From sequence record MH051918: a DNA stretch of 50,048 bases. The stretch is one strand, 5' to 3'. The position numbers and the translations under genes are program-made. Origin of the DNA: Escherichia phage vB_EcoS_IME347. Below the pieces are notes generated by a model, which worked only from the letters and a program-made list of their open reading frames with translations, searched no databases and had not been told where the DNA came from. Each line of letters opens with the position of its first letter. Within the stretch, counting starts at the first letter, position 1. Below, piece by piece: positions 5,475-26,028 of this stretch.

Positions 5475-5520
5475 CACGAATTGCTAAAAACCTATCAGGG
5501 GAATGCGCTATGATTCCCCT
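5470..5520 (+). promoter_or_regulatory. intergenic motif module (AATAGCACGAATTGCTAAAA + hairpin + TATGAT)
   Basis: Motif overlaps stop TAG; inverted repeat ggggaatgcgc..gattcccc. Confidence 0.5.
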
Positions 5521-5976: not shown

Positions 5977-6026
5977 ATAGCACGAATTGCTAAAACTTGC
6001 TCAGGGGCATTTGTTATAGTGTCCCT
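5976..6026 (+). promoter_or_regulatory. intergenic motif module (AATAGCACGAATTGCTAAAA + hairpin with TGTTATAGT)
   Basis: Motif after stop TAA; inverted repeat ggggca..gtccc around TGTTATAGT. Confidence 0.5.
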
Positions 6027-7174: not shown

Positions 7175-7224
7175 TAGCACGAATTGCTAAAAACTCGGCG
7201 GGGTAAGCTGTTATAGTTACCCCA
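7174..7224 (+). promoter_or_regulatory. intergenic motif module (AATAGCACGAATTGCTAAAA + hairpin with TGTTATAGT)
   Basis: Motif overlaps stop TAA at 7172-7174; inverted repeat ggggtaagctg..agttacccc. Confidence 0.5.
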
Positions 7225-7441: not shown

Positions 7442-7645
7442 ATGAGCAACACAATCAAACTTCGCACGACTCACGCCGATTGCCCTTGGATTACTCCGGG
7501 CAAGATTTACGAGGCCGAATTGGTTGCGAAAGATGGATTTGACGGACTGTATCGGCTGAAGAATCCAGACTTCGGAGAGGTGCTCACTGCAATTGAGAAC
7601 TCCTGTCATTTGGGCGGGGAAAGTTGGGAAGTAGTCACCGAATAG
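7442..7645 (+). CDS. hypothetical early protein (67 aa)
   Basis: Closely follows the previous ORF; contains the ITPGKIYE motif shared with ORF 4726. Confidence 0.45.
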   Translation: MSNTIKLRTTHADCPWITPGKIYEAELVAKDGFDGLYRLKNPDFGEVLTAIENSCHLGGESWEVVTE

Positions 7646-7692
7646 CACGAATTGCTAAAAGTTCCGCAAGGGCATTTGATAGAATGCCCTTA
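7641..7692 (+). promoter_or_regulatory. intergenic motif module (AATAGCACGAATTGCTAAAA + hairpin with TGATAGAAT)
   Basis: Motif overlaps stop TAG; inverted repeat caagggca..tgccctt enclosing TGATAGAAT. Confidence 0.5.
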
Positions 7693-8990: not shown

Positions 8991-9152
8991 ATGAAGCAAG
9001 ATATCAAAATCGAAATCAAAGTAACCCGAAACGGCGAAATCACTCGCTACAAAAAATCACTCAAGCCGGGCGAGGCTGTAATCGGTCGAATCGCTGGTGT
9101 GATGCTGAAGGCGCAGGAAGATGAAGCGATTCACGGTAAAGCTAACGATTAA
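8991..9152 (+). CDS. small hypothetical protein (53 aa)
   Basis: AGGAG 7 nt upstream of ATG 8991; partially overlaps the alternative track ORF 9121..9306, so only one of the two may be real. Confidence 0.3.
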   Translation: MKQDIKIEIKVTRNGEITRYKKSLKPGEAVIGRIAGVMLKAQEDEAIHGKAND

Positions 9153-9308
9153 GCGAATGGGGCGCAGGTGCTCAACCTGCCGCCAAAACTTCGAAACCGA
9201 AGTAAAAGCGAGTTCCGCAGAAGAAGCCGTAGCAAAGGCTAAACTCCAGTCAGGAGCCAATGCGGACACTCACCAGTTTTCAATCAACCTTGTAAGGGAA
9301 ATTTAACC

Positions 9309-9533
9309 ATGACAACTTTTTTATTCATTCTCGCCTTTATCGCTGTTTTCGTGCTTGGTATCGCGTCTGCTCTTCTGCTTATCGCCTTTATCGTGAAGCA
9401 CGACGCCGAAACTGACGAAGGCGTGTGGCTGACGTACAATCGCAGTGAGGATGTTTGGAAGTGCTTCGGTGATTTGCCAGCAGTCTACGCGAAGGCTCAA
9501 ACTCACAAAAAGCCGATACAAAAAATCTGCTAA
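9309..9533 (+). CDS. small membrane protein (74 aa)
   Basis: N-terminal transmembrane helix FLFILAFIAVFVLGIASALLLIAFIV; last ORF before the early-region terminator. Confidence 0.5.
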   Translation: MTTFLFILAFIAVFVLGIASALLLIAFIVKHDAETDEGVWLTYNRSEDVWKCFGDLPAVYAKAQTHKKPIQKIC

Positions 9534-9537
9534 AACT

Positions 9538-9561
9538 AAACCCGCCTCGGCGGGTTTTTTT
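9538..9561 (+). terminator. intrinsic terminator ending the early gene array
   Basis: GC stem cccgcc-tcg-gcggg followed by a T7 run. Confidence 0.7.
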
Positions 9562-9579
9562 ACGTCTGGAGTATGATAA

Positions 9580-9598
9580 AATAGCACGAAATGTTAAA
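9580..9598 (+). promoter_or_regulatory. intergenic motif copy (AATAGCACGAAATGTTAAA) upstream of terS
   Basis: Motif variant between the terminator and the RBS GGAGG at 9604-9608. Confidence 0.45.
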
Positions 9599-9614
9599 CA
9601 TCGGAGGACGTTTT

Positions 9615-10139
9615 ATGGAACGGAAAGAGAAAGCGCCCGTAGTGCAGGGCGGTAATTTTAAGGAGCTATACCGAAAGAAATTCGGAACGATTATCGGAAA
9701 ATCAGCCAGCTTCACGCCTGAACAGGTTTTCGATCTGGCGGTGAAGTATTTCACGTGGGCGGAGGACAACGCAATTAAAGCCTCTGAGACAGCGAGTTTT
9801 CAGGGTGAAGTGGAGGAGTCACTCGTTCATAAACCGCGCGTGTTTACTCACAACGGCTTCCGCCTGTTCCTTGGGATCAGCGAGTCGGCGGTCACGAAGT
9901 GGCGGCGACAGGAAGATTTCGCAGAGGTGATGGAGTTCGTTGATACGGTAATCAGCGAGCAGAAATTCCAGCTTGCAGCTAACGGCGTGATTAATGCCTC
10001 GTTCATCGGGAAAGACTTGGGGATCGACAAGCCAGCGACAATCAACATCGACAACCAAGCGAACGCCACGGCGGGCGCGATCGCCTCCACTGAGTCCGCG
10101 ATGCGCGATGCGGTAGAGAGTATTCTGGATAACCTTTAA
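9615..10139 (+). CDS. terS: terminase small subunit (putative)
   Basis: ATG at 9615 with GGAGG RBS; lies immediately upstream of the large terminase gene; HTH-like segment. Confidence 0.55.
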   Translation: MERKEKAPVVQGGNFKELYRKKFGTIIGKSASFTPEQVFDLAVKYFTWAEDNAIKASETASFQGEVEESLVHKPRVFTHNGFRLFLGISESAVTKWRRQEDFAEVMEFVDTVISEQKFQLAANGVINASFIGKDLGIDKPATINIDNQANATAGAIASTESAMRDAVESILDNL

Positions 10140-10172
10140 TCTTCGGGCGGTTCGCCGCCCTTTGGAGTTTTC

Positions 10173-11744
10173 ATGTTAGTGTGGGAAGAACTGGACGCAA
10201 CGCAAAAGCTTGCGATCAAGAAAATGAGCGAGGCAAGTTTCGAAAAGATGATTCGGATCTGGTTTCAGCTTATTCAGGCGCAGCAATTTAAACCTAACTG
10301 GCATCACCTTTACCTTTGTCACGAGGTGGAGGAAATCATCGCCGGGCGGCGCGGGAATACGATCTTCAACGTAACGCCGGGTTCCGGTAAAACCGAAGTG
10401 TTTTCGATTCACCTCCCTGTGTACGCGATGCTTCGCGTGAACAAGATCCGAAACCTGAACGTGTCGTTTGCCGATAGTCTCGTCAAGCGTAACAGCAAGC
10501 GAGTGCGAGAAATCATCGCATCGAAAGAGTTCCAAGAGTTATGGCCTTGCGGGTTCGCCACGTCCAAAGATGATGAAATTCAGGTTCTCAATCAGGCTGG
10601 CAAGGTGTGGTTCGAACTGATATCCAAGGCGGCTGGCGGACAAATTACGGGTTCTCGTGGTGGCTACATGAGCGACGGATTCTCCGGGATGGTGATGCTT
10701 GACGATATCGACAAGCCGGACGATATGTTTTCCAAGGTCAAGCGAGAGCGTACACACACGCTCCTGAAGAATACAATCCGAAGCCGAAGGATGCACAACG
10801 AAACGCCGATTATCGCCATACAGCAGCGCCTACACGCGCAGGATTCGACGTGGTTCATGATGTCGGGCGGAATGGGGATAGACTTCGAACAGATCTCAAT
10901 CCCGGCTCTCGTTACTGAGGAATACGGGCAATCGCTTCCTGAATGGTTACGCCCTCACTTCGAGAAGGATGTTCTCTCGTCCGAGTATGTGATGATAGAC
11001 GGAGTGAAGCATTACAGCTTCTGGCCTGACAAGGAATCTGTTCACGATCTGATTGCATTGCGAGAGGCAGACCAGTACACGTTCGACTCGCAGTACCAGC
11101 AGCGCCCGATCGCGCTTGGTGGCTCCGTGTTTAACTCGGAGTGGTGGACGTACTACGGAAACAGCCTTGAGGCTGACGAACCAGATCCCGGCAAGTTTGA
11201 CTATCGTTTCATTACGGCTGATACCGCTCAGAAAACAGGTGAGCTTAATGACTACACTGTATTCTGTCTTTGGGGTAAGAAAAACGATAAGGTGTACTTT
11301 ATCGACGGGGTTCGCGGAAAGTGGAAAGCGCCGGAAATGGAGACTCAGTTTAAATCATTCGTTAGCACGGCATGGCGTCACAATAAGTCGATGGGCGTAC
11401 TCAGAAAAATCTACGTGGAGGATAAAGCGAGCGGGACGGGCTTGATTCAGAATCTGGAGAAGAAAACTCCCGTCCCGATCACGCCATTGCAGCGAAATAA
11501 GGATAAGGTTACTCGCGCGATGGATGCGCAGCCAGTAATCAAGGCCGGGCGCGTTGTTCTGCCTGAATCGCATCCTATGCTTTCCGAAATCATCACGGAG
11601 CATAGCGCATTCACATACGACGACACGCACCCTCACGACGATATTGTCGATAACTTCATGGATGCGGCAAACATCGAACTTCTGACGATAGACGATCCTA
11701 TCGAACGAATGAAACGCCTTGCGGGAATGGCAAAGCGCAAGTAA
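10173..11744 (+). CDS. terL: terminase large subunit
   Basis: Walker A TPGSGKTE and acidic Walker B-like LDDIDKPDD in the N-terminal half, with a C-terminal nuclease-like half; 523 aa. Confidence 0.85.
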   Translation: MLVWEELDATQKLAIKKMSEASFEKMIRIWFQLIQAQQFKPNWHHLYLCHEVEEIIAGRRGNTIFNVTPGSGKTEVFSIHLPVYAMLRVNKIRNLNVSFADSLVKRNSKRVREIIASKEFQELWPCGFATSKDDEIQVLNQAGKVWFELISKAAGGQITGSRGGYMSDGFSGMVMLDDIDKPDDMFSKVKRERTHTLLKNTIRSRRMHNETPIIAIQQRLHAQDSTWFMMSGGMGIDFEQISIPALVTEEYGQSLPEWLRPHFEKDVLSSEYVMIDGVKHYSFWPDKESVHDLIALREADQYTFDSQYQQRPIALGGSVFNSEWWTYYGNSLEADEPDPGKFDYRFITADTAQKTGELNDYTVFCLWGKKNDKVYFIDGVRGKWKAPEMETQFKSFVSTAWRHNKSMGVLRKIYVEDKASGTGLIQNLEKKTPVPITPLQRNKDKVTRAMDAQPVIKAGRVVLPESHPMLSEIITEHSAFTYDDTHPHDDIVDNFMDAANIELLTIDDPIERMKRLAGMAKRK

Positions 11745-11750
11745 ACGAGG

Positions 11751-11797
11751 TATAATCAGGGCTGGATTTTTCCAGCCCTTTTTTATTGGAGGTAGTA
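11751..11797 (+). promoter_or_regulatory. late leader module: TATAAT + hairpin + UUUUUUAUU + GGAGG
   Basis: TATAAT at 11751-11756; stem cagggctgg..ccagccc; T-rich run then GGAGG immediately before the portal ATG; same architecture at 15474-15522 and 17154-17205. Confidence 0.5.
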
Positions 11798-13111
11798 ATG
11801 AAAATTGTTAAGCAAGATGGGTACAACGAGATCTTTAACGGCGGTGCTGAAGGCGCTCCAAAACCTTTCTACGTAAGCAATCCGCTTGCTTACGGGTTGG
11901 GTTATCTTTACGAGAATAACGGTCTTGCTCGTCGAATCATCGACGTTGTACCGGAAGAAATGGTAGCGCCCGGATTCAAGGTTTCTGGTGTGCAGGATGA
12001 AGCGGCCTTTCGCTCCTCGTGGGATGAACTGGAAATTGAAGGTCATATCGTTGATGCGCTTGCGTGGCGTCGCCTGTATGGTGGTTCAGCTATCGTGGCG
12101 ATCATCAATGACGGTCGGAAGCTAACCTCTCCGGCAAAACCCGAGGGTGTGCTGGAAGGCGTCCGAGTGTACGATCGGGATCAGGTTCAAGTGGAGAAGA
12201 AAGAAACCAACGCGCGAAACATTCGCTACGGCGAGCCTGTTTTGTACAAGATTTCCCCCGGCGACGGGCTGACCCCTTATCTTGTTCACCACACCCGAAT
12301 CAAGATTCTGGACGGCGAACGCCTTCCCCTTCAGCAGCGAAAGATGAATGACGGATGGGGCGCTTCAGTCCTGAATAAGTCTCTGATTGAAGCGATTTAC
12401 GATTACGAGTATTGCGAGGAGCTTGCGACTCAATTACTACGCCGTAAGCAGCAAGCAGTTTGGAAGGTTAAAGGGTTGGCGGAAATGTGTGACGACGACG
12501 AAGCGCAATTCGCTGCACGAATCCGATTGGCTCAGGTGGATGATAATTCCGGTGTCGGTAAGGCGGTTGGTATCGATGCGGAAACGGAGGAATACGAGAT
12601 CCTAAACTCCGACGTTAACGGTGTGTCTGAATTCCTTCAGGGCAAATTCGATCGCATCGTGTCGCTATCCGGGATTCACGAAATCATCCTGAAGAATAAG
12701 AACGTCGGCGGCGTAAGCGCAAGCCAGAATACGGCGCTTGAGACTTTCTATAAGTTGATTGACCGCCAGCGCGCGGAGCATTACCTCCCGATTCTGGAAT
12801 TTCTGCTCCCGTACATGCTGCACGAAAATGAATGGTCTGTGGAGTTCGAACCGCTCTCCATGCCTTCGGAAAAGGAAGCGTCGGAAACAACGAAGAATCA
12901 CGTTGAGGCTATTCGCGGTGCTCTGGAAGATCAGATGATTGACTTAGAAGAGGCTCGCGATACATTGCAATCCGTTGCGCCAATGTTTAAGCTGAAAGAC
13001 CTGAACCACAAAGAGCTTGAGAGCCGTATGCAGGAACAACAGCAGCAAGAGCAGGAACCGGGCGTTAGCGAAGTAATCAGCGAATCGGAGGGAGAAGAGG
13101 GTGAAGATTAA
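11798..13111 (+). CDS. portal protein
   Basis: 437-aa ORF directly downstream of terL; acidic C-terminal tail; position conserved in siphovirus head modules. Confidence 0.75.
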   Translation: MKIVKQDGYNEIFNGGAEGAPKPFYVSNPLAYGLGYLYENNGLARRIIDVVPEEMVAPGFKVSGVQDEAAFRSSWDELEIEGHIVDALAWRRLYGGSAIVAIINDGRKLTSPAKPEGVLEGVRVYDRDQVQVEKKETNARNIRYGEPVLYKISPGDGLTPYLVHHTRIKILDGERLPLQQRKMNDGWGASVLNKSLIEAIYDYEYCEELATQLLRRKQQAVWKVKGLAEMCDDDEAQFAARIRLAQVDDNSGVGKAVGIDAETEEYEILNSDVNGVSEFLQGKFDRIVSLSGIHEIILKNKNVGGVSASQNTALETFYKLIDRQRAEHYLPILEFLLPYMLHENEWSVEFEPLSMPSEKEASETTKNHVEAIRGALEDQMIDLEEARDTLQSVAPMFKLKDLNHKELESRMQEQQQQEQEPGVSEVISESEGEEGED

Positions 13112-13865
13112 CGGGATCGCTAAGAAATGGCGCTTTCCTGAATCCAGCGAGCGGCAACTGAGCCGCTCAATGGAGCAATTTACGGGCGCGATCGTCGCCC
13201 GTATGCAGGAGAGTTTTAAGCCGATGAAGTGGGATGCTGACGAAGAGCAGATCGATCAGACTGAACGTGACTTGCTGGATTATGCTGAAGAGCTAATCGC
13301 CGCTCTGTTCGTATCTCTCCCGGCGTTGGCGTACACCATCTACAAGTTCAACTCAAAGCAGTTTTTGAAGGTGGCGCGTAGTGCTGGAGGGGGAAAGAAC
13401 GAGTCCGTAATGTTGCTTGCTCTGATTGGTGCAAACGGCTCCGAGCCGTGGTATTCGCCTCAGTACAAACTGTGGGAGTCTCAGGCCAAAACATCGATCA
13501 GGAAGTTCGCTGCGAATGCGATTACTGACTTCACGGACAGGCTTCGCAATGCTGCGGCTAACGGGTACGATCGCGAACGTGCTTACGAGGAAACCAATCA
13601 GAGATATAAGGTTTATTCATCTTGGGCGCGTAACCGTGCATCAGGGATCGTGACCACTTGGAACAGCAGAATGATGCGCCAACGTCTGAAGGATGCTCAA
13701 GTTACGCATTACTTTTGGCGTGGAATGATGGATTTACGCGAACGCGAGAAACATGTAAGATGGGAGGGAAAACGCATCCCTATCGACAGTAATCACATAT
13801 TCCCCGGCGAGGAATACAACTGCCGTTGTTGGGCTGTCCCTGACTTCTCAAAAATTGGAGATTAA
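13101..13865 (+). CDS. head morphogenesis protein (minor head protein, putative)
   Basis: Synteny between portal and scaffold; probable GTG start after GGAGAAGAGG; start and product uncertain. Confidence 0.5.
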   Translation: MKINGIAKKWRFPESSERQLSRSMEQFTGAIVARMQESFKPMKWDADEEQIDQTERDLLDYAEELIAALFVSLPALAYTIYKFNSKQFLKVARSAGGGKNESVMLLALIGANGSEPWYSPQYKLWESQAKTSIRKFAANAITDFTDRLRNAAANGYDRERAYEETNQRYKVYSSWARNRASGIVTTWNSRMMRQRLKDAQVTHYFWRGMMDLREREKHVRWEGKRIPIDSNHIFPGEEYNCRCWAVPDFSKIGD

Positions 13866-13868
13866 ATA

Positions 13869-14975
13869 ATGAAGGCAAAGCAAAGGTTCGACAGTGTAAA
13901 AATCAAGGCGCACTTTGATGAACATGGTTTCTTGGTTGACCGTCCGATCGTGGCGCGAATCGGCGCTCAAACGTACCGCACCCCGCATGGGGATCGAGTT
14001 GAGTTCCGCCCGGCCTCGGAGGTTTTCAAGGCTGAATCTCTGGAGACTTATGCGGGCAAGCCCGTAACTATCGGTCACGTAACCGTAAATCCAGACAATG
14101 CGGAAAGCGTGGTTGTGGGATCTTGCGCTGGCTCTGGAATCCCGTCCGGGATCGGGGTTGAGGTTCCAATGTCAATCTACAGCCAGCGAGCGATCGACAA
14201 AGCGAAGTCGAAGGCGGCGGCGGAAATCTCCGTGGGCTACACGTCCGAAGATATCGAAAAGCCGGGTTGGGGTTCCAATGAAACTGGCGAATACATCTTC
14301 GAAGAGGATATGAAGCAGGACGAAGCGCCCCCGGCTGGATGGGTTCACTTTGACGCCCTGCAAACGAACATCAAAGTTAATCACGTCGCGCTTGTGTTTA
14401 AAGGCCGTGCGGGAATCGCTAAATTGAACCTTGATAGCGAGCAGGAATTCCCGTATGATAACGACGTTGACACAAACAAAGAGGATAATGAAATGACTGT
14501 AAAAATTAAGATCGACTCCGCAGAAGTGGAAGTGACCAAGGATGTTGCCGCACACATCGAAAAGCTGAATGCTGAAATCGCAACTGTTCAGGGCAAGGCC
14601 GATGGTCTGGAAGCTGAACGCGATAACCTGAAAGAGAAGGTTGACGGCATCCCGGCGCAAATCGAAGCGGCTGTAGCTCAGGCGAAAGCTGACGCTGAAG
14701 CAATGACCGCGCTTATCGCTCTCGCCTCCGAAGCTGGCGTGAAGTGTGACGGTCTGGACGCTAAAGGAATCAAGGTAGCATTCATCAAAGAAACTACCGG
14801 GAAAGATGTTTCCACCAAATCAGACGCCTATATCGAAACAGCTTTCGACTTTGCGAAAGATTGTGATAACATGGCCTCACAGCGTCAAAGCATTAAAGGC
14901 GATGCCGCGAAAGAAAAAGAGGACGAAAAGCCGGAACTGACTCCGAACTCTCGCCTCGCTAAACTCAACAAGTAA
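13869..14975 (+). CDS. head scaffolding / prohead-protease-like protein (putative)
   Basis: Globular N-terminal domain followed by a long Ala/Glu/Lys-rich predicted coiled-coil C-terminal half; position between portal/morphogenesis genes and capsid genes. Confidence 0.45.
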   Translation: MKAKQRFDSVKIKAHFDEHGFLVDRPIVARIGAQTYRTPHGDRVEFRPASEVFKAESLETYAGKPVTIGHVTVNPDNAESVVVGSCAGSGIPSGIGVEVPMSIYSQRAIDKAKSKAAAEISVGYTSEDIEKPGWGSNETGEYIFEEDMKQDEAPPAGWVHFDALQTNIKVNHVALVFKGRAGIAKLNLDSEQEFPYDNDVDTNKEDNEMTVKIKIDSAEVEVTKDVAAHIEKLNAEIATVQGKADGLEAERDNLKEKVDGIPAQIEAAVAQAKADAEAMTALIALASEAGVKCDGLDAKGIKVAFIKETTGKDVSTKSDAYIETAFDFAKDCDNMASQRQSIKGDAAKEKEDEKPELTPNSRLAKLNK

Positions 14976-14987
14976 GGAGAAGAAATT

Positions 14988-15464
14988 ATGGCAATTGCAG
15001 CAAGCTATCAGAAAGATATGTCTATCGCCGTTCCGGGTATGGTGGCAGACACCTCCCGTTACAACATCGACGGCGCTTGCGTACTGAGCGGTGACGTTGA
15101 TATCCTCGTCGGCGTTGCGGTTCAGGTTGACAACGTTCAGGCCGTTGACGGTCACAAAGTCATGAAGCCTATGGCATCCGGCGGCAAGGCTTATGGTGTG
15201 GCGATTCGCTCCCACTTCCAGACTAAAGGCAAAGATGGTCAGATGTACTATGAAGCGGGCGGCGGCATTAACGTAATGACCTCCGGGCGCGTTTGGGTTA
15301 TCTCCAAAGATTCCACCGCTCCGGCGTTTGGTGAAACTGTCAACTTTGACGTTGACGGACAGCAGAAAGCAGACGGCGCGATCGAAACCGCATGGACTTA
15401 TGCGGGCGGCTTCACTACCTATCAGGATTTGAAGCTGGTTGAAATCCAATTGCATCAACTGTAA
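14988..15464 (+). CDS. capsid-associated protein, paralog 1 (decoration/cement-like, putative)
   Basis: RBS AAGGAG; shares YNIDGACV..GVAVQV..YGV..RS..GRVWV motifs with the next ORF. Confidence 0.5.
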   Translation: MAIAASYQKDMSIAVPGMVADTSRYNIDGACVLSGDVDILVGVAVQVDNVQAVDGHKVMKPMASGGKAYGVAIRSHFQTKGKDGQMYYEAGGGINVMTSGRVWVISKDSTAPAFGETVNFDVDGQQKADGAIETAWTYAGGFTTYQDLKLVEIQLHQL

Positions 15465-15473
15465 TAAGTAGCT

Positions 15474-15522
15474 AATATAGGGATTACCTTTTGGTAGTCC
15501 CTTTTTTATTGGAGGTAATAAA
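15474..15522 (+). promoter_or_regulatory. late leader module: TAATATAG + hairpin + UUUUUUAUU + GGAGG
   Basis: Hairpin gggattacc..ggtagtccc at 15480-15502, T run at 15503-15510, GGAGG at 15511-15515. Confidence 0.5.
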
Positions 15523-16017
15523 ATGTCTGATTATGGTAATTTGTCTTTGGGGGTTAGCTGTCCCGGCCTCCTGTCCGATACGTCGGACTATAATATCGAC
15601 GGCGCTTGTGTGGCTCGTGGGGAAATTCCTTTTGGTGTCGCTGTTCAGGTTGTCGAGATCGTGGATGGTGTCAAGGTTGTCTCCGCGCTGAGTGACGGCA
15701 AGCCGTATGGTGTGTCGATGCGATCGCAATACGAAAACTTGTCGGGCGTGGTTCAGGACGGCGAACCTGTGAGCGTTATCTCTCATGGTCGAGTTTGGGT
15801 TCGCACCTCTCTGGAGGATTCGCCCGCTTTCGGTGAGAAGTTATCCTTCGAATCTGGCGGAGAAGTATCTGAGGCCGGGGAGGCTGGCTGGCCTTTCGCT
15901 GGAGGTTTCGTTAAGTTTGGTGAGGGCTGGATTGTAGAGGTTCAGGTTTTGCAAAACCGATACTACATCCCACCTGAGCCGGAACCTGAACCAGAACAAG
16001 ACCCGGAAGAGCCGTAG
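15523..16017 (+). CDS. capsid-associated protein, paralog 2, with Pro/Glu-rich C-terminus ending at an amber codon
   Basis: Paralogous to 14988..15464; the C-terminal PEPEPEPEQDPEEP is followed by TAG and then 20 further in-frame Pro/Glu-rich codons up to TAA at 16078-16080. Confidence 0.5.
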   Translation: MSDYGNLSLGVSCPGLLSDTSDYNIDGACVARGEIPFGVAVQVVEIVDGVKVVSALSDGKPYGVSMRSQYENLSGVVQDGEPVSVISHGRVWVRTSLEDSPAFGEKLSFESGGEVSEAGEAGWPFAGGFVKFGEGWIVEVQVLQNRYYIPPEPEPEPEQDPEEP

Positions 16018-16100
16018 CCGGAAGATCCTGAACCGGAAGAGGGAGGCGAAACTGACCCGGAAGAAGGTTCAGAGGGTTAACACAAAAACAGTTTGACGCT

Positions 16101-16118
16101 TTAACAAAAAGTGCTATC
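16101..16118 (-). promoter_or_regulatory. intergenic motif copy (TTAACAAAAAGTGCTATC, reverse variant) upstream of the capsid gene
   Basis: Reverse complement matches the AATAGCACTTTTTGTTAA variant; followed by a hairpin plus T run at 16121-16147. Confidence 0.4.
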
Positions 16119-16167
16119 ATAAAGCCGTTATCACTTAACGGCTTTTTTCACAAAAGAGGATGTAAAC

Positions 16168-17145
16168 ATGACTAAGAAATATGACGAATTCGAAGCAACC
16201 GTAGTTGGCTCCCACCTGAAGATGCGCGGTGAAAAAGCCGATGCTGATACTCTCGGTATCTGGACTGCTCAGGAGCTTCACAAGCTGAAAAATCAGTCTT
16301 ACGAAAAAGACTATCCGGCAGGTTCCGCTCTGCGAGTATTCCCGGTAACTAACGATCTGTCCCCGGTTGATAAGACCTTCGAATATCAGACCTTTGATAA
16401 GGTTGGTATCGCGCAGATTATCACCGACTACACCGATGATCTTCCTCTGGTTGATGCTATGTCGTCCAGCGAGTTTGGCAAAGTTTTCCGCCTCGGTAAC
16501 GCATACCTGATTTCAATTGACGAAATCAAAGCAGGTCAAGCAACTGGCAAGTCGCTGTCTAATCGCAAGGTTAACGCCGCGCAACTGGCACACGATCAGT
16601 TAGTCAACCGCCTGGTGTTTAAAGGTTCTGTTCCTCACAAAATTGTGAGCGTGTTTAATCACCCGAACATTACCAAGATCACCTCCAAAGGCTGGACGTC
16701 AACCGCTGGTAGCGTAGTAACCAAAAACCCGGAAACCGCAGAAGAAGAACTGACGGCGGCTATTGAGTCGATCCAGACTCTGACGATGGGCGCACACCGT
16801 GCAACGCACATCCTGATCCCGCCGTCAATGCGCAAGGTTCTGACTGTTCGTATGCCTGACTCCACTGAAAGCTATCTGGATTACTTCATGAAGCAGAACG
16901 GCGGAATCACCATCGAATCAATCGCGGAACTGGAGGATATCGACGGCGCTGGCACGAAGGGTGCTCTGGTTTACGAGTACGACCCGATGAATATGTCCAT
17001 CGAAATTCCTGAAGCGTTCAACATGCTTCCTGCGCAGCCGAAAGACCTGCACTTCAAAGTGCCTTGCACCTCTAAGTGTACTGGTCTTACGATTTACCGC
17101 CCACTAACGATTGTCCTGATTACAGGACTTGCAGTAAGCGAGTAA
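16168..17145 (+). CDS. major capsid protein
   Basis: 325-aa ORF with AAGAGGA RBS in the canonical position after scaffold and accessory capsid genes. Confidence 0.7.
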   Translation: MTKKYDEFEATVVGSHLKMRGEKADADTLGIWTAQELHKLKNQSYEKDYPAGSALRVFPVTNDLSPVDKTFEYQTFDKVGIAQIITDYTDDLPLVDAMSSSEFGKVFRLGNAYLISIDEIKAGQATGKSLSNRKVNAAQLAHDQLVNRLVFKGSVPHKIVSVFNHPNITKITSKGWTSTAGSVVTKNPETAEEELTAAIESIQTLTMGAHRATHILIPPSMRKVLTVRMPDSTESYLDYFMKQNGGITIESIAELEDIDGAGTKGALVYEYDPMNMSIEIPEAFNMLPAQPKDLHFKVPCTSKCTGLTIYRPLTIVLITGLAVSE

Positions 17146-17153
17146 ATTGATTA

Positions 17154-17205
17154 CTATAGGGACTCATTAATTTGAGTCCCTTTTTTATTATCTGGAGAAA
17201 CCAAA
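17154..17205 (+). promoter_or_regulatory. late leader module: TACTATAG + hairpin + UUUUUUAUU + GGAG
   Basis: Hairpin gggactcattaatttgagtccc at 17158-17180 followed by a T run and RBS. Confidence 0.5.
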
Positions 17206-17499
17206 ATGGCTAAAGAACAAAAAACCAAAGCAACCGAAGAGCGCGTAGCGATTGTGAACGTCGGAACGGCGCTGATTTTCATCAACGGTGAAAAGCTGAT
17301 GCCGGATCAGGAAATTGAAATTGATGTGGCTCAACTGAAAACCTCCGGCGTTGAATACCTGTTCGGGCAGGGCGTGGTTATTGTCAAAGATAACTCCGCA
17401 TTAACCAATGAAGTGCGAGCACGAATTGAAGCGCGTCGCAAAGAAGATCCTACCGCTGGCAAGTCCCAAAAAGAACTTGAGGACGGCGGCGAGTTCTAA
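17206..17499 (+). CDS. hypothetical head-associated protein (97 aa)
   Basis: ORF directly after the capsid gene. Confidence 0.45.
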   Translation: MAKEQKTKATEERVAIVNVGTALIFINGEKLMPDQEIEIDVAQLKTSGVEYLFGQGVVIVKDNSALTNEVRARIEARRKEDPTAGKSQKELEDGGEF

Positions 17500-17546
17500 A
17501 ACCGGGGCGCTATATGCGCCCTTAATTGTATCTGGAGGAAAGCAAA

Positions 17547-17960
17547 ATGACTGAGCAGGAAACCCAAGAAACTTACAACATCCTCGTTGCACTGGCTCCG
17601 CCTATGCAGAATCTAAACCCCGAGCAGATTAAGATCTGGATTGATTTAGCTAGCGACTACGTTTGCAAGAAGAAGTTCAAAAGTAAATACCTGAAGGCGG
17701 TTGCTCTGTACGCTCTTCACCTGATGGTGCTTGATGGTGCAATGAAGCAATCAACGGAAAGTGTAGAGTCAATGGGGCGGCGTGTAACGTCATTCTCTCT
17801 GAGCGGTGAATTCTCTCAGACGTTCGGTGATGTGTCGAAAACAACCTCCGCTGACGTTTTGGAGCAAACACCTTGGGGCAAGATGTATCGCGCATTGCTT
17901 CGCAAGAGTGGCGGCGGGATGGGTTTATTAACTGGATATCGTGCGGGGTGCAGACGATGA
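17547..17960 (+). CDS. head-tail connector/adaptor protein (putative)
   Basis: ATG at 17547 after GGAGGA; position between capsid and tail genes. Confidence 0.4.
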
Positions 17961-18334
17961 ATTACGATTCTGTGAGAAAGCTGGCAAAGGACGGGATTGA
18001 TTTCTTTGCCGATCCTATGCTGGGTGGTGGCGATTGTACGCTTATTCGCGGCGGCGGCGTGAAGATGGTTAACGGGGTTGAGGTTGTTCAGCCTCATGAA
18101 ACCTTCGTCATTCGCGGGGTTATTCGTGATGTAAATTCCCGTGACGTTAACGGCGACACTATCCGGGCTGAAGATAAGCGAGGGATTTTCACCTATCAGG
18201 TAGATATCGCCAAGGGGAACTGGATGCTTATCGAAGGCGTGAAATATGAAGTTGTCGATCCTCGCCCTATAAAACCTTGCGGTGCGGTTGTCGCCTATCG
18301 CCCAATCCTTCGGAGGGTTGCAGTCTATGGCTAA
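17957..18334 (+). CDS. head-tail joining protein (putative)
   Basis: Overlapping ATGA start; synteny. Confidence 0.4.
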
Positions 18335-18767
18335 CTACGTGATCAGACAATTTCACGGTTCGATTGACGCATGGATAAAGGCCGCACAAAGCGGCCTAGA
18401 AGATGCTGTAGAAATGATGTTGATGGATGTACACAAGGCGTTAGTTATGGGCTCCCCGGTTGATACAGGGCGCTTCCGTGCCAACTGGCAGATAACATTT
18501 AACACCTACCCACTTCATTCACTCAATGCATATGACAAGCAGGGGCAGGACACAATCGCAGAAGGTCAGGCGAAAATCTCCGGGATGTTCCGGCGTGGTG
18601 GCGCTATAACTTCCGTCCACTTCTCCAACCTGTTAATATATGCCAATGCGCTGGAGTACGGGCATTCAAAACAGGCTCCGGCTGGCGTGGTTGGTATTGT
18701 GGCGGTTAGGTTGCGTTCCTTTATGGCTGACGCGATCAGGAAAGCGAGGGCTAAAAATGCACTATGA
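18327..18767 (+). CDS. neck/tail completion protein (putative)
   Basis: Overlapping start; synteny. Confidence 0.4.
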   Translation: MANYVIRQFHGSIDAWIKAAQSGLEDAVEMMLMDVHKALVMGSPVDTGRFRANWQITFNTYPLHSLNAYDKQGQDTIAEGQAKISGMFRRGGAITSVHFSNLLIYANALEYGHSKQAPAGVVGIVAVRLRSFMADAIRKARAKNAL

Positions 18768-19170
18768 ATTATCAGTGGCGGCGCGAGCCGCCCTTGGGGA
18801 ATGGCTGGAGATCCCCGGAAACGAATATCCAGTGGCTTACGAGAGCGTTCCTTTTGAGCCTCCTTCGGACGGTTCCAGTTGGTTAAAATTCGACTACGTG
18901 GAGGCGGAAACCGTTCGAGTCGGACTGTCCCGCAAGTGCTCGTATTATGTGGGGATGGTTCAGGTTGGCATACACTTTGCGCCGGGGTTAGGTATGGACT
19001 CAACCCGGCTACTCGCGAAAAACCTTGCTGATTTTTTCGCAGATGGTAAAATGCTGATTAACGGTTGTTATATCGTGGAGGGTGGAGAGGTTCGCCCTGT
19101 TCAAAAATCTGTGGGCGGATGGTTCTATCCTGTTCGCTTTTATGTTCGTTATGACTCAAAGGGAGTATAA
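18757..19170 (+). CDS. tail terminator-like protein (putative)
   Basis: ATG at 18757 after GCGAGGG; immediately upstream of the major tail gene. Confidence 0.4.
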   Translation: MHYELSVAARAALGEWLEIPGNEYPVAYESVPFEPPSDGSSWLKFDYVEAETVRVGLSRKCSYYVGMVQVGIHFAPGLGMDSTRLLAKNLADFFADGKMLINGCYIVEGGEVRPVQKSVGGWFYPVRFYVRYDSKGV

Positions 19171-19173
19171 ATT

Positions 19174-19836
19174 ATGCATTTACCTAACGGTTCTCAAATT
19201 TTCATCGGCTCCACCGTCGCTAATGCTGTAGATGTAACCAACGTTAGCAACGCTGTCGATCCGGTTTTCTCAATGGCTGACACCTCCGGCTTTTCCGAAA
19301 ATGACTACGTTATCGTAACGTCTGCCGCTTGGGGCAAACTTCAGGATCGAGTCCTGCGCGTTAAGTCCGTAGCTGAGGGCGTAAGCGTAACTCTGGAGGG
19401 TATCGATACAACCGATACTAACGTTTTCCCAACTGGCACCAACCCGGCGAAGATTGCGAAGATTACCGCATGGACTGAAATCCCTTGCGTTCAAGATCTT
19501 TCTCAGGACGGCGGCGAGCAGCAGTTTTACACGTATCAGTGTCTGTCCGACGATCAGGAGCAGCAGTTACCGACGTTTAAGTCTGCCGTGTCTCTGACTT
19601 ACACCTTTGCGCACGAATTTGATAACGCGATTTATCCGATCCTGCGCAAACTGGACGAGTCCGGCGACGTTACCCCGCTGCGAATGTTCATCCCTAAAGC
19701 GCGAGAAATGCGCCTGTGGGCTGGTATCTTGTCTTTCAACGAGATTCCGCAGACCAGCGTTAACGAAATGGAAACTGTTTCTTTGTCCGTTTCCCTGAAA
19801 GGTAAATTCACCTTCCTTTCTTCCGAAACTGAATAA
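19174..19836 (+). CDS. major tail protein (putative, V-like position)
   Basis: 220-aa ORF directly upstream of the chaperone/tape-measure block; followed by an intrinsic terminator. Confidence 0.6.
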   Translation: MHLPNGSQIFIGSTVANAVDVTNVSNAVDPVFSMADTSGFSENDYVIVTSAAWGKLQDRVLRVKSVAEGVSVTLEGIDTTDTNVFPTGTNPAKIAKITAWTEIPCVQDLSQDGGEQQFYTYQCLSDDQEQQLPTFKSAVSLTYTFAHEFDNAIYPILRKLDESGDVTPLRMFIPKAREMRLWAGILSFNEIPQTSVNEMETVSLSVSLKGKFTFLSSETE

Positions 19837-19843
19837 TCCCAAT

Positions 19844-19868
19844 GGGGGCGCTTGCGCTCCCTTTTTTG
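19844..19868 (+). terminator. intrinsic terminator after the major tail gene
   Basis: GC stem gggggcgc-ttgc-gcgctccc followed by a T6 run; an extended -10-like TGTAGAAT lies just downstream. Confidence 0.6.
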
Positions 19869-19948
19869 TTTCTGTAGAATCACTGTATCAAATCAATACG
19901 GCGCTGTTTTAACAAAAAGTGCTATCACACCAATCAGGAGAAATGACA

Positions 19949-20263
19949 ATGGCTAAATTCAAGTTCACTCTGGGCGCACTGCCTGACTTCAAACTTCCAG
20001 TATCGTTCAACATGCCGAACGGCGAAGAAGGTCGAATCGTGTTTACCGTTAAGCACAAGACCGCCGCAGAGATTCAGGAGTTATTCCAGAAAGGTGCGGG
20101 CGATAAAGATTTCGTGATGGAATTGGCTGTGGGTTGGGATATCGCGGACGACGAGTTTAACGAAGAGAACGTAGAGCGACTGATCAACTATTACCCCGGC
20201 TCAATGCTCGCACTGACTCAGGCATACATGAAGGCTCTTGCAGGTCAGCGCGTAAAAAACTAA
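19949..20263 (+). CDS. tail assembly chaperone (G-like)
   Basis: ATG 8 nt after CAGGAG; 104 aa; located between the major tail and tape-measure genes; ends at a slippery A AAA AAC site. Confidence 0.6.
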   Translation: MAKFKFTLGALPDFKLPVSFNMPNGEEGRIVFTVKHKTAAEIQELFQKGAGDKDFVMELAVGWDIADDEFNEENVERLINYYPGSMLALTQAYMKALAGQRVKN

Positions 20264-20580
20264 AACGGGCGGTTTATCTGATGTATCAGAAGCCGCCCAC
20301 GGATGAAGAATTACGATCGGCTGGCTTATCCAGATCTGACTATGAAGGCGAGGAGCCGGAAGAGGTTATCGGCTCCGAAGATATGCTGAAGTCATGGGAC
20401 GTGTTTTGCGCTATGCAAACACAGTGGAGAAGCGCGGGAGCCGGGGCTTATGGCCTTGATTACAATGTCTTGCCGATGCTGTTCAAAATCTATAAAATAG
20501 ACGATGAAGAGCTAACGTTAAATGACGTGCGAGTTATGGAACAGAAAGCATTAGAAATGATGCACCATAACGCAAAATAA
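19949..20580 (+). CDS. tail assembly chaperone G-T fusion via putative -1 frameshift near 20254-20260
   Basis: Heptamer A AAA AAC at 20254-20260 in the G frame; the -1 frame is open from there through ORF 20281..20580; lambda G/GT paradigm. Confidence 0.45.
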
Positions 20581-20584
20581 CAAG

Positions 20585-20606
20585 CCGCCTTCGGGCGGTT
20601 TTTTTG
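20585..20606 (+). terminator. intrinsic terminator-like hairpin before the tape-measure gene
   Basis: gccgcc-ttc-gggcgg followed by a T7 run, then GGAGGA RBS. Confidence 0.5.
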
Positions 20607-20623
20607 TATCTGGAGGAATAATT

Positions 20624-23533
20624 ATGGTCGATAAAGTAGCGGGCTTGTCGCTTGATGTTGACGTGTCGCAAGTCGATCGCGCGGTGAAGTCCCTGAATCA
20701 ATTCGCCACGGCGAACGATAAGGCTGCGGACGCAACCCACGAGTTTTTGAACCAGACCGAGATTGCGAAGCAGAAGGCGAAGGCACACGCAAGCGAGCTT
20801 GCGAAACAGTCTCGCGAGTATGCATCAATCCAAAAGGCGATTGACCCGACGATCAGCAAAATGAACCAGCTTCGTGATACAGCGAAGTCCCTTGATTCTC
20901 TGTGGCAAAAGGGATTCATCCCGGACGATGAATTTTTCCGGCTGAGTGCAATCCTTGAGCAGCAGGAAAACGCGCTGAATAAGAATAAGCTTGCACTGAC
21001 TGAAGAGGGCAGGGCGGCGATCGAAGAGGGGAAGGCTAAAGACCGTGCGGCGGCGGCTGGCGACAAGTTCATAAAACAGTTGCAGGAGCAGGCTGCGGCG
21101 GCTGGCAAAACCTCAACGGAAATGCTGGAGCTAAAAGCGGCTCAGTTGGGCGTGTCCCAACAAGCAGCGCCATTCATCGCGCAGCTTAACGCTCAGTCAA
21201 AAGGGATGAAGCTTGCCGGGTTGTCTGCGGGGCAATACTCGCAAGCGATGCGAATGCTTCCGGCTCAGATTACGGACGTGGTGACTTCCCTTGCATCCGG
21301 TATGCCTGTTTGGTTGGTTGCAATCCAGCAGGGCGGGCAGATTAAGGACTCATTCGGCGGGATCGGTAATACGTTCAAGGTTCTGACTTCGTACATTACA
21401 CCGATGCGAATTGCTCTTGCTGGCACGGTTGGAGTTCTGCTCGGACTCGGTAAAGCGGCGTGGGATTCCTACGAGGCGAACAAGGCTCTGTCCGATTCGC
21501 TTATCCTGACTGGTAATTACGCCGGGAAAACTACAGGGGAGATTCGGGAAATGTCTGAGGCGATCGCGGACGGCACTAGCGCTACCGTTTCAACCGTTCG
21601 ACAGATTGCAACCGATTTGGTTAAGTCCGGGAAGTACACTGGCGATCAGATTAAAATCATCACGGCGGCAACTGCTCAGTGGTCTACGGTTACGGGTGAA
21701 TCCGCTGAGGAAGTGACGGGCTATTTCAAGAAGATTGCAGATGATCCGGTTCAAGGTCTTGCGAAGCTTAACGAACAGTTTAACTTCCTTGAAAAAGGTC
21801 AGTTAACCTACATTTCCGGTCTTGAAAAGACTCAAGGGACGACGGCGGCTGTTACTGCGGCGACGAAGCTTTTCGCTGACACGATGGAAACTCGGTTACA
21901 GAAGATTGCGGACTCCGCAACGCCTCTTGAAAAGATGTGGGCGAACATCAAGAAGTGGGCTTCCGACGCTTGGGGTTGGGTTGGAGATCACACTCGTGGC
22001 GCGTTGAACTTGATCATTGACGTTGTAGCCGGGACGGTTGAGCAGGTTCAGCTAATCCTGAACAAAGGCGACATTGTAATCGGTCAATTCATCGTTAGCG
22101 CTACGAAGGCGATGCAGAAAATTCCGGGGATGGGTGATGTTGGCAACGACATTATCAAGAATCAGGAAAAAGTGATTAACGACGCGATCGCCAACAACAA
22201 GGAGCTTGAGAAGTCCATCATTGAGCGTGACAAGCGGATTCGTCAAGGCGAAATGGGTTACATCAACTCCGAAGGGAAGGAAAACTTAGGCAAGAAGTAC
22301 GCCGATGAAACCAAGGAAGCCGTAGAGAAAGAGGCCGAAGCGCTCAAGAAGAAAGGGAAGGCTCAGAAGGTCATTGTAGATCAGGGCGACAAGATCACGG
22401 AGCAGTACAACGCCGATATCATCGCGCTACAGTCTCAGTTGGAAGTCCTGAAAGAGCACAAGACGATTAACGACTCAATTAGCCAGCAGCGCAAGACGCT
22501 ATGGAACGAGCAAGCGAAAGTTAAGGTTCTGGAGGAGGCTGCAACTCAGCGTGTACTGACGAAGGAAGAGAAATCCTATCTCGCCAACAAGGATAAAATC
22601 CTCGCGCTGGCTGAACAGAAAGCAATTCTCGGTGATCAGATTGTTGCTCAGCAGAAGCTTAACGCCCTGCAAGACGAGTCAACAAAGTACGTACTGAAGA
22701 TGGAGGCGCAGTCGAAATCAATTCGCGAAACGTCCGGCCTCGGTGATATCGCTGCGAAGCGACAAAGGGAACTGGATGAACTGAAGGCGTCATGGCAGGG
22801 CAAAGGCGGAAGTGAAGATGATCCGGCATTGCAGAAGATGATTGAAGCCCGGCAGAAAGTCTACGCCGATGAAGATGCGCAGCGTCAAGATTGGCTGGCT
22901 GGAGCGGAGGCGGCGTTTAACAACTACGGCGAAGCGGCAACCAACATGTATGACAATGTTGGTCAGGTTGCAAGCGAGGCGTTAAACGGAATGTCCACGA
23001 TGATGGCAGATTTTCTCATGACCGGGAAGGCCAACTTCGGAGACTTCGCGAAGAGCATTATCAGCATGATCATTAACATGATCACGAAGATGGTTCTGTT
23101 TAACTCAATCGCTGGCCTGATGGGTGGAAATACGTGGAGTTTTGCAGGTGGCATGGGTGGATTCGCTAACGGCGGTTACACTGGCGACGGCGGGAAGTAC
23201 GAACCTAAAGGCGTTGTTCACGGCGGTGAATTCGTATTCACCAAAGAGGCGACGAGCCGGATCGGGGTTGGAAACCTGACTAAGCTGATGCGCGGCTACG
23301 CTAACGGCGGCTCGGTTGGTAATGCCTCTCGCGGCACGGGGTTAACCCTTTCATCTTCATCCGGTCAGGGAACCTACGTCGATGTTAGCGGGATGAAGGT
23401 TGACGTTAATAACGGAAATGACCCTCGCGGCATGGAGCATGGGATCCGAATGATTTTCAACGAAATGATTAACGACGCTTGCTCTCAGGGTGGTAAAGTG
23501 TACAACTATATCAATGAGAAAACGGGAGGTTAA
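20624..23533 (+). CDS. tail tape measure protein
   Basis: 969-aa ORF, largely Ala/Lys/Glu/Gln-rich predicted coiled coil, with a Gly-rich C-terminal region (GGMGGFANGGYTGDGG). Confidence 0.85.
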   Translation: MVDKVAGLSLDVDVSQVDRAVKSLNQFATANDKAADATHEFLNQTEIAKQKAKAHASELAKQSREYASIQKAIDPTISKMNQLRDTAKSLDSLWQKGFIPDDEFFRLSAILEQQENALNKNKLALTEEGRAAIEEGKAKDRAAAAGDKFIKQLQEQAAAAGKTSTEMLELKAAQLGVSQQAAPFIAQLNAQSKGMKLAGLSAGQYSQAMRMLPAQITDVVTSLASGMPVWLVAIQQGGQIKDSFGGIGNTFKVLTSYITPMRIALAGTVGVLLGLGKAAWDSYEANKALSDSLILTGNYAGKTTGEIREMSEAIADGTSATVSTVRQIATDLVKSGKYTGDQIKIITAATAQWSTVTGESAEEVTGYFKKIADDPVQGLAKLNEQFNFLEKGQLTYISGLEKTQGTTAAVTAATKLFADTMETRLQKIADSATPLEKMWANIKKWASDAWGWVGDHTRGALNLIIDVVAGTVEQVQLILNKGDIVIGQFIVSATKAMQKIPGMGDVGNDIIKNQEKVINDAIANNKELEKSIIERDKRIRQGEMGYINSEGKENLGKKYADETKEAVEKEAEALKKKGKAQKVIVDQGDKITEQYNADIIALQSQLEVLKEHKTINDSISQQRKTLWNEQAKVKVLEEAATQRVLTKEEKSYLANKDKILALAEQKAILGDQIVAQQKLNALQDESTKYVLKMEAQSKSIRETSGLGDIAAKRQRELDELKASWQGKGGSEDDPALQKMIEARQKVYADEDAQRQDWLAGAEAAFNNYGEAATNMYDNVGQVASEALNGMSTMMADFLMTGKANFGDFAKSIISMIINMITKMVLFNSIAGLMGGNTWSFAGGMGGFANGGYTGDGGKYEPKGVVHGGEFVFTKEATSRIGVGNLTKLMRGYANGGSVGNASRGTGLTLSSSSGQGTYVDVSGMKVDVNNGNDPRGMEHGIRMIFNEMINDACSQGGKVYNYINEKTGG

Positions 23534-23536
23534 GTA

Positions 23537-23890: not shown

Positions 23891-23893
23891 CCA

Positions 23894-23920: not shown

Positions 23921-23962
23921 TAGCTGTAGAATAGATGAACATTTATAGAGGAGGTCAGGAAA

Positions 23963-26024: not shown

Positions 26025-26028
26025 ATAA

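Follow-up and report, generated by a model that had tools for sequence, protein, structure and literature searches.

Conserved terminators before late genes of the T1-like phage vB_EcoS_IME347 as candidates for fusion with sigma-70 promoters

Introduction

T1-like phages transcribe their late genes with neither a polymerase nor a sigma factor of their own. In the model put forward for phage T1, as it is summarized in PMC11447400, the genome is organized in "transcriptons," units which are flanked by terminators and contain RpoD promoters (Roberts, Martin & Kropinski 2004). The 2024 re-annotation of phage TLS reported terminators everywhere and almost no promoters, and did not confirm the transcriptons (PMC11447400). 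Here, we analyze three intercistronic leader modules in the late region of Escherichia phage vB_EcoS_IME347 (sequence record MH051918), whose genome of 50,048 bp, listed as a complete viral genome in IMG/VR (IMGVR_UViG_2974601010_000001), is the window to which all coordinates refer. It is a T1-like siphophage of the Drexlerviridae, with a structural region about 79% identical at the DNA level to those of the Sertoctavirus phages SRT8, BrunoManser, and IME-JL8, while T1, TLS, and other Drexlerviridae are more distant relatives. The modules lie between terL and the portal gene (site 1, where profile matches confirmed both labels), between two paralogs of the capsid cement or decoration protein, both assigned to phrog_1989 and Pfam Phage_cement (site 2), and between the genes of the major capsid (major head) protein (MCP) and of a DUF7444 protein (site 3).

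Terminators have been annotated at the same places in relatives. The site 1 ortholog is a terminator in SA12KD (OL960582) and corresponds to T30 in TLS (Suppl. Table S1, PMC11447400). The site 2 ortholog is annotated in T1 (AY216660) at 14237-14269 and in SA12KD (OL960582), and is T34 in TLS (PMC11447400), while the site 3 ortholog is annotated in T1 (AY216660) at 16107-16137 and in SA12KD (OL960582), and is T36A in TLS (PMC11447400). A further terminator upstream of the MCP gene appears in T1 and SA12KD and is T35 in TLS (PMC11447400). These elements agree with those described here in position (terL/portal, decoration/next gene, MCP/next gene), strand, and the combination of hairpin and T-tract, and their stems are partly identical; they are predictions rather than mapped ends, and the T1 record has no terminator at site 1. 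No promoter overlapping the terminators of the three sites is annotated in T1, SA12KD, or TLS.

According to our analysis, the three sites are well supported by their sequence as Rho-independent terminators, as already known from relatives, and we lean toward the view that a host sigma-70 core promoter, serving the next transcription unit, is joined to the 5' side of each of them. Intercistronic terminators in the late operon of T1-like phages were known before; what is added here is comparative evidence which suggests that a promoter is fused to each of them. The overlap of a -10 element abutting the stem, the start inside the 5' arm, and the comparison of TTG-17-TAnnAT spacing are not described in PMC11447400 or in the T1 and SA12KD annotations.

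Anatomy of the three sites

An initial annotation of this DNA, made from the sequence alone, had described three leader modules, each with a hexamer, a GC-rich hairpin ending in CCC, a U-rich tract, a Shine-Dalgarno (SD) sequence, and an ATG, and all three were found on inspection as described. The order common to them is stop codon, TAnnAT hexamer, a hairpin starting with (A)GGG and ending with CCC(T), TTTTTTATT, GGAG(G), and ATG.

Site 1
11727..11732, + strand, weak -35-like hexamer ATGGCA in the C-terminal codons of terL, 18 nt 5' of the -10
11742-11744, + strand, stop codon of terL
11751..11756, + strand, -10 hexamer TATAAT, a hexamer being present in all 34 distinct orthologs
11758..11779, + strand, predicted terminator hairpin, 9-bp stem, AGGGCTGGA/TTTT/TCCAGCCCT, ending the terS-terL unit
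11779..11787, + strand, T-tract TTTTTTATT (T6ATT), putatively both the terminator U-tract and the U-rich leader of promoter-born RNA
11788..11800, + strand, SD GGAGG (11788-11792) and portal ATG (11798)

Site 2
15450..15455, + strand, -35 TTGCAT, Leu-His codons at the end of cement paralog 1
15462-15464, + strand, stop codon of cement paralog 1
15473..15478, + strand, -10 hexamer TAATAT
15479..15502, + strand, predicted terminator hairpin, 10-bp stem, TTTT loop
15502..15525, + strand, T-tract TTTTTTATT (T6ATT, 15502-15510), SD GGAGG (15511-15515), and ATG of paralog 2 (15523)

Site 3
17129..17134, + strand, -35 TTGCAG, Gly-Leu-Ala codons of the MCP C terminus
17143-17145, + strand, stop codon of the MCP gene
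17152..17157, + strand, -10 hexamer TACTAT
17158..17181, + strand, predicted terminator hairpin, 9-bp stem, 6-nt loop, ending the MCP unit
17181..17208, + strand, T-tract TTTTTTATT (T6ATT, 17181-17189), SD GGAG (17194-17197), and ATG of the DUF7444 gene (17206)

The hairpins begin 13 to 14 nt past the stop codon and consist of 9- to 10-bp stems, with 5 to 6 GC pairs, and loops of 4 to 6 nt, and at all three sites the U-tract stands directly 3' of the stem, CCC being followed without interruption by TTTTTTATT. Two details of the initial annotation had to be modified. An SD sequence is indeed present upstream of each ATG, but it ends 5 to 8 nt before it, not about 10; likewise, a TATA-like element is present, but the proposed "TATAG" reads better as a TAnTAT hexamer behind which the stem opens with AGGG.

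Scans for terminator-like and promoter-like matches were run over window positions 9000-27000, where the three sites are three of the top four terminator-like matches. The string CCCTTTTTTATT occurs exactly three times, only at these sites, and with one mismatch allowed it gives 6 matches versus 0.37 expected. The full leaders fold at -17.4 to -18.9 kcal/mol, with z = -3.3 to -3.5 relative to shuffled sequences. A search of 9000-27000 against Rfam 15 gave no covariance-model match at E<=1 at or near the three sites. Lengthening of the stem by pairing of the hexamer with the T-tract was rejected by eye, since U-U mismatches break the pairing.

Sites 1 and 2 share a 19-nt identity, CCCTTTTTTATTGGAGGTA (11776-11794 and 15499-15517), spanning the stem end, the T-tract, and the SD, which could reflect convergence on one optimum or a short gene-conversion tract. 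A repeated mobile element was considered for the modules and rejected, since the three share functional elements only and the relatives have their own lineage-specific stem at each site.

Conservation of the terminators

Orthologous intergenic regions were taken from 62 related loci, fetched with the capsid protein as the query, which provided 34, 43, and 37 distinct sequences for sites 1, 2, and 3, respectively. A perfect stem of 5 to 11 bp, with -11 to -19 kcal/mol, is present in every one of them (34/34, 43/43, and 37/37), and the T-tract in nearly all. The stem sequences themselves differ by clade, with 8 different ones at site 1 (e.g., GGCTGGA/TCCAGCC versus GGCTGTC/GACGGCC), 15 at site 2, and 13 at site 3 (e.g., GGGACTCA, GGGGAATCC, GGGAACC, GGGAGCCTC, and GCCTCTC). 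When arms are swapped between orthologs, pairing falls to 59 to 73%; the stems had been defined as perfect pairs, which gives 100% pairing by construction and makes this comparison weaker than an independent covariation test. Stems were found in each sequence separately and pairs were counted anchored at the stem base, a procedure used in place of RNAalifold, which predicted no pairs on a MAFFT alignment of the 37 site 3 sequences because stems of different lengths are out of register in that alignment.

The suggestion in the initial annotation that the modules are intrinsic terminators is thus supported by their anatomy, by the family-wide conservation of the hairpin, and by the annotation of the orthologs in T1, SA12KD, and TLS. 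It had suggested that they could be leaky; judged by anatomy, with hairpins of -15 to -17 kcal/mol and six U, they look strong rather than leaky.

Conserved candidate -10 hexamers and -35 spacing

The three -10 hexamers (TATAAT, TAATAT, and TACTAT) all have A at position 2 and T at position 6. In the alignment of site 3, none of the 37 distinct sequences departs from TAnnAT at its T, A, A, or T, four positions which equal the SD and the ATG in conservation, while the stem and the stretch from the stop codon to the hexamer vary freely in the same sequences. A TAnnnT hexamer stands at the stem in 34/34 site 1 and 25/43 site 2 orthologs. At site 1 the versions are TATAAT (22), TAAAAT (6), TACAAT (3), and an overlap of TAATGT and CATAAT (3), placed 0 to 1 nt before an A-run and the stem. 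Wherever a hexamer is present, at any of the sites, it lies at most 3 nt from the stem throughout the orthologs (0 to 2 nt at site 3). Other late terminators in the window (9538, 17505, and 20582) have no such hexamer, which is therefore not a generic terminator feature.

The spacing of a -35 element is equally constant. TTG occurs exactly 17 nt 5' of the hexamer in 26/26 distinct contexts at site 3 and in 17 of the 18 distinct contexts having a hexamer at site 2, the remaining one having it at 16 nt. Taken together, 43/44 contexts have TTG at 17 nt, versus a background of 4.3%, which is the share of the 3,377 TAnnAT hexamers in the same loci with TTG at this distance. Moreover, the trinucleotide is produced by different coding contexts. 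At site 3 it arises from three codon arrangements, cTT-Gnn (Leu-x), aTT-Gtc (Ile-Val), which follows an 18-nt difference in the C terminus and spacer, and, one frame over, a Leu codon TTG. Its sources at site 2 are the Leu TTG of ...QLHQL* or, with an 11-nt shift, ttT-GAa of ...FEVQ..., the shifted context being that of the related locus L011, with TTGAAG from Phe-Glu codons. Across the T1-like group, the nine final MCP codons all vary at their third position, apart from the Ile/Leu codon giving TTG. Conservation of TTG-17-TAnnAT suggests the signature expected of a sigma-70 core promoter under selection, for which sites 2 and 3 offer good comparative evidence and site 1 weaker evidence. With TAnnAT directly next to the stem and TTG kept at a distance of 17 nt despite coding changes, the sites become specific promoter candidates at known coordinates.

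At site 1, ATGGCA-18-TATAAT matches 10/12 consensus positions and is the top promoter-like match in 9000-27000. Its relatives have ATGGTT/TGGTTA at the -35 position, or the ATAGCAC half of a direct repeat of the family, an 18- to 21-nt element which fills the site 1 -35 region in many of them.

Directly 3' of the hexamer, the three sites and the majority of orthologs have (n)GGG(A/G). A GGGA at -6/-3 raises the affinity of -10-containing promoter fragments for E. coli polymerase about 7- to 10-fold (PMC3526302), and GGGA or G-rich discriminators strengthen the binding of such fragments to the RNA polymerases of both E. coli and Thermus (PMC3526302). The GGG after the hexamer resembles this discriminator, recognized by sigma region 1.2; here, in contrast, it is also the base of the terminator stem, and its register is often shifted by one (AGGGA). 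Since the GGG is confounded with the stem, it carries little independent weight as promoter evidence.

Geometry of the proposed cassette

E. coli RNA polymerase starts approximately 6 to 9 nt after the -10. Since the -10 abuts the stem, the usual start would fall inside the 5' arm, and the hairpin would therefore be part of the upstream transcript rather than of the RNA made from the promoter. If transcription starts at the 7th nt after the hexamer, 2 to 5 of the 7 to 11 nucleotides of the 5' arm would be left in the RNA, and leaders truncated in this way show no significant structure (z = -0.6 to +0.9). In the minimum-free-energy folds of sites 1 and 2 the freed CCCUU pairs with the SD, which is not significant either (z = -0.4 to -0.6).

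In the cassette that we propose, the terminators would end the upstream late units, namely terS-terL (site 1), the genes from portal to cement paralog 1 (site 2), and MCP (site 3). The -35, which is TTGnnn at sites 2 and 3 and the poor ATGGCA at site 1, would lie within the final codons of the preceding gene and the -10, TAnnAT, 17 to 18 nt farther on, abutting the stem, where the GGG at the base of the 5' arm would double as a G-rich discriminator. A polymerase arriving from upstream would transcribe the whole hairpin and the U-tract and terminate, whereas one recruited by the local promoter would start about 7 to 9 nt after the hexamer, inside the 5' arm; its RNA, devoid of the GC stem base, would form no terminator and the polymerase would pass the T-tract, which would then act as a U-rich leader upstream of the SD. 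What we observe directly is how the sites are built, that hairpin and T-tract are conserved, and that TAnnAT and TTG are conserved in sequence and spacing; that the promoters are active, where transcription starts, how efficiently it terminates, and any translational role of the U-tract are what we infer in this scheme. Such a layout would offer a simple mechanical reason for the presence of strong terminators directly before abundantly expressed structural genes.

A fourth module precedes the MCP gene:

16093..16148, + strand, MCP promoter TTGACG-16-TGcTATCAT (16093-16120), hairpin (16122-16144), and T-run to 16148

The MCP promoter is strong, near-consensus, and conserved family-wide, and the terminator hairpin starts one base after it; the module is annotated as a promoter followed by a terminator in T1 (AY216660) and SA12KD (OL960582). 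An alignment of the four modules needs no gaps anywhere between the -35 and the T-tract. MCP is the most abundant virion protein, and transcripts from its promoter must therefore escape the adjoining hairpin, so that we consider the MCP promoter the best internal control for a -10 abutting a hairpin. A literature search for promoters overlapping terminator hairpins found no relevant precedent, a Mycoplasma transcriptome paper that it returned not being a case.

Points against the composite reading and alternative explanations

Several observations weigh against a promoter at these sites. The -35 matches only 3/6 positions at window sites 2 (TTGCAT) and 3 (TTGCAG); site 1 has ATGGCA at 18 nt, and none of its orthologs has TTG. 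At site 2, 18/43 orthologs have the terminator without the hexamer, which several clades lack, and in the clade L051-L060 the site 3 hexamer is kept without TTG, a separate candidate promoter lying 3' of the terminator. Promoter scans of single genomes are not enriched, the match counts equaling those of shuffled sequences, and conserved Leu/Ile-Val residues, together with shared descent, account for part of the TTG conservation. In the TLS study, which relied on stringent promoter predictors, no promoter was called here (PMC11447400), and a literature search gave no mapped transcript 5' or 3' ends for any T1-like phage, Term-seq and RNA sequencing included; the PhageExpressionAtlas preprint does not mention Drexlerviridae. 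Other observations concern the hairpin itself. The site 1 T-tract is lost only in the clade L051-L060, whose MCP is about 59% identical and in which hairpin and hexamer are kept (TAA-TACATAAT-GTGGGCTTAACGGCCCAC-AAATCAC), and the hairpin of the MCP module has no T-tract in L005, L012, and L046. Hairpins kept without a T-tract, where canonical termination would not be possible, probably have a further role beyond termination, which the fusion of terminator and promoter does not explain and which may be, for instance, 3'-end protection.

The strongest alternative, which we hold to be unlikely while giving it real weight, is that the sites are plain intercistronic terminators, possibly leaky, with read-through alone feeding the downstream genes and setting their stoichiometry, and with TAnnAT and TTG as by-products of A/T-rich or coding sequence. 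If the promoter part is false, the sites are just such ordinary, previously annotated terminators. Their anatomy and conservation suit this account, as do the annotations of T1, TLS, and SA12KD, in which these sites have no promoters, the weak -35 matches, the site 2 orthologs devoid of hexamer, and the lack of enrichment in single-genome scans. However, it leaves unexplained why TAnnAT is invariant in 37 sequences amid varying intergenic neighbors, why the distance from hexamer to stem is fixed at 0 to 2 nt, why TTG is found at 17 nt in nearly all contexts across codon arrangements, and why other terminators of the same phage have no hexamer; furthermore, terminators as strong as these appear would starve the downstream structural genes.

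Another reading is that the terminators are strong and are overridden during late transcription by a phage antitermination system, lambda Q/N-like or RNA-based, a possibility to which we assign a low probability. The presence of many strong terminators in one co-oriented block of structural genes is reminiscent of the lambda late operon, many small open reading frames (ORFs) have no assigned function, and antitermination could coexist with local promoters. However, no Q/N-like protein, sigma factor, or other antiterminator was found among more than 40 window ORFs scanned with PHROGs or Pfam, where the sole transcription-related match is one Cro-like helix-turn-helix (HTH) regulator, and no conserved RNA family was found.

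The initial annotation had also considered promoters whose transcripts would carry the whole 5' hairpin as a stabilizer, followed by an AU-rich translational enhancer. In E. coli, 5' stem-loops and U-rich leaders stabilize mRNA and enhance translation, as in the ompA leader and in S1-binding U-rich leaders, and promoter elements are indeed present at the sites. The promoter half of the proposal agrees with the sigma-70 signal reported above (TTG-17-TAnnAT, good at sites 2 and 3, weaker at site 1), but the hairpin would not be on the promoter's RNA, since the predicted start lies inside the 5' arm and the truncated leaders are unstructured. The window hexamers end 0 to 1 nt before the stem, so that a transcript with the full hairpin would need a discriminator of 0 to 1 nt versus the usual 6 to 9 or so; a start at the 7th nt would leave only 2 to 5 arm nucleotides; and an RNA with the full hairpin and U-tract would terminate itself. 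We thus deem this reading very improbable. What the sites share with the E. coli systems is a U-rich tract directly before a strong SD, while, unlike in those stabilizers, no 5' hairpin is expected on promoter-born RNA; a role of the U-rich tract as leader or translational enhancer is plausible on sequence grounds.

Slightly less probable still is the reading of the sites as processing sites, where RNase III or RNase E would cut the polycistronic late RNA into stable monocistronic pieces with 3' hairpins. An AU-rich single strand does adjoin a stable stem, and the hairpins without a T-tract in some relatives hint at 3'-end protection. However, the T-tract is kept in almost all orthologs, and TTG at -35 spacing is unexplained; RNase III was rejected, stems of 9 to 10 bp being too short for its canonical substrates.

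Finally, promoters for a T7-like single-subunit RNA polymerase (TATAGGGA), a resemblance which the initial annotation had pointed out, have next to no probability and were rejected: the likeness to the T7 group amounts to the ten bases ACTATAGGGA at 17153-17162 (site 3), which are identical to positions -7 to +3 of the T7 consensus, whereas farther upstream only 4/12 specificity positions agree with it, relatives do not conserve the motif but have TATTATAGGGGC, TATCATGGGAGC, or TAATATCGGGGA in its place, and, as that annotation had rightly stated, no gene for such a polymerase is found among the ORFs scanned. The largest of these encode the tape measure, the J-like tip protein, a tail fiber, a helicase, and a DUF3987 protein, the first two being the only ones above 700 amino acids. 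That T1-like phages are described as using the host polymerase (PMC11447400) also counts against such promoters.

Relation to the transcripton model

Returning to the terminator-promoter fusion, the resulting layout (P1/T, P2/T, PM/T, and P3/T, with M for the MCP module) fits the transcripton model of T1 as summarized in PMC11447400. The terS-terL unit would end at the site 1 terminator; P1 would drive the genes from portal to cement paralog 1, ending at T2; P2 would drive cement paralog 2, ending at the MCP-module terminator, TM; PM would drive MCP, ending at T3; and P3 would drive the DUF7444 gene and the head-tail genes.

Beyond the three sites, it seems to us an evenly balanced question whether the Drexlerviridae late region as a whole is built from fused promoter-terminator cassettes, in which the GGG...CCC hairpin would both terminate the upstream unit and supply the next sigma-70 promoter with its discriminator and first transcribed bases. 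Through the start inside the stem, transcripts of that promoter would be immune to the terminator. A second design would have its -35 in the terminator loop and its spacer in the T-tract. Were this true, the transcriptons would gain support at the sequence level, the element would be a natural 45-bp transcriptional insulator or reset element, and cassettes of about 45 bp would be compact natural "terminate-and-restart" parts for synthetic biology. Elements of the second design are seen at 19844-19880 (after the major tail protein), 23898-23932 (after the tape measure), and 26030-26065 (before the J-like tip protein), where the loop and 3' arm hold the -35 (TTGCGC), the T-tract makes up the 17-nt spacer, and TAGAAT or TATAAT follows. 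The BrunoManser ortholog of the element at 19844-19880 reads TTGCTT-17-TAGAAT.

A putative direct-repeat promoter class

The window also contains 31 copies, versus 0.27 expected, of a direct repeat (DR), ATAGCACnnnTTGnTAAA, which corresponds to the DR of TLS (PMC11447400). The copies are mostly oriented with local transcription.

Examples of DR copies, + strand: 969-986, 1234-1251, 3641-3658, 4651-4668, 5471-5488, 5977-5994, 7174-7191, 7642-7659
Examples of DR copies, - strand: 47667-47684, 48859-48876, 49862-49879
Examples of DR-promoter hairpins: 4679-4700, 5497-5520, 6003-6026, 7668-7691, 32716-32737, 42905-42928

In 22 of the 31 copies, a -10-like hexamer (TATAGT, CATAAT, TATTAT, or TAGAAT, often preceded by TGn) begins exactly 20 nt after the repeat, a phasing not reported in the TLS paper (PMC11447400). 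This phasing places the palindromic core TAGCA-N5-TGCTA near -42, a position like that of a class II activator. The DR with its hexamer looks like the phage's own early/middle promoter class, and it is probably what the initial annotation counted as its first family of leader modules. At these promoters, the spacer and the -10 lie within a GC-rich hairpin, GGGG...CCCC, of -11 to -15 kcal/mol, which lacks a T-tract and has the hexamer in its loop or 3' arm; it ends near the predicted +1 and is followed by a conserved ACACCAAAC or ATCGAAACGA and then by an SD. This hairpin is not a canonical terminator.

Two copies, at 16099-16117 and 19908-19925, are in reverse orientation. The former makes up the spacer and the beginning of the -10 of the MCP promoter (TTGACG-cTTTAACAAAAAGTGC-TATCAT), where a protein bound to the DR would be placed like a repressor, its position at the other promoters being near -42. 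A candidate for such a protein is the product of a 147-aa ORF at 36884-37327 (- strand), since it is the only recognizable transcription factor among the ORFs scanned; it matches phrog_2856 ("transcriptional regulator") and, at E=1.8e-4 but under the gathering score, Pfam P22_Cro, a weak match to a Cro-like HTH. Another copy, at 9581-9598 (ATAGCACGAAATGTTAAA), overlaps the annotated start of terS, with ATG 9591 at the "TTG" position of the repeat. The true start of terS may be a downstream Met; the PHROG alignment of terS starts at residue 14.

Neighboring genes

Cement paralog 2 of the window (15523-16017) has 164 amino acids and a Pro/Glu-rich tail at its end, whereas its counterparts in BrunoManser (L001, 5943-6725) and T1 (14282-15049) have approximately 255 to 260 amino acids and an Ig-like domain. 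The 75 nt located 3' of its stop codon (16018-16092) still resemble a coding remnant. In the relative L007, an extra ORF of about 170 codons (1678-2256), probably a putative homing-endonuclease-like insertion, stands between terL and the site 1 cassette, and the cassette downstream of it is intact.

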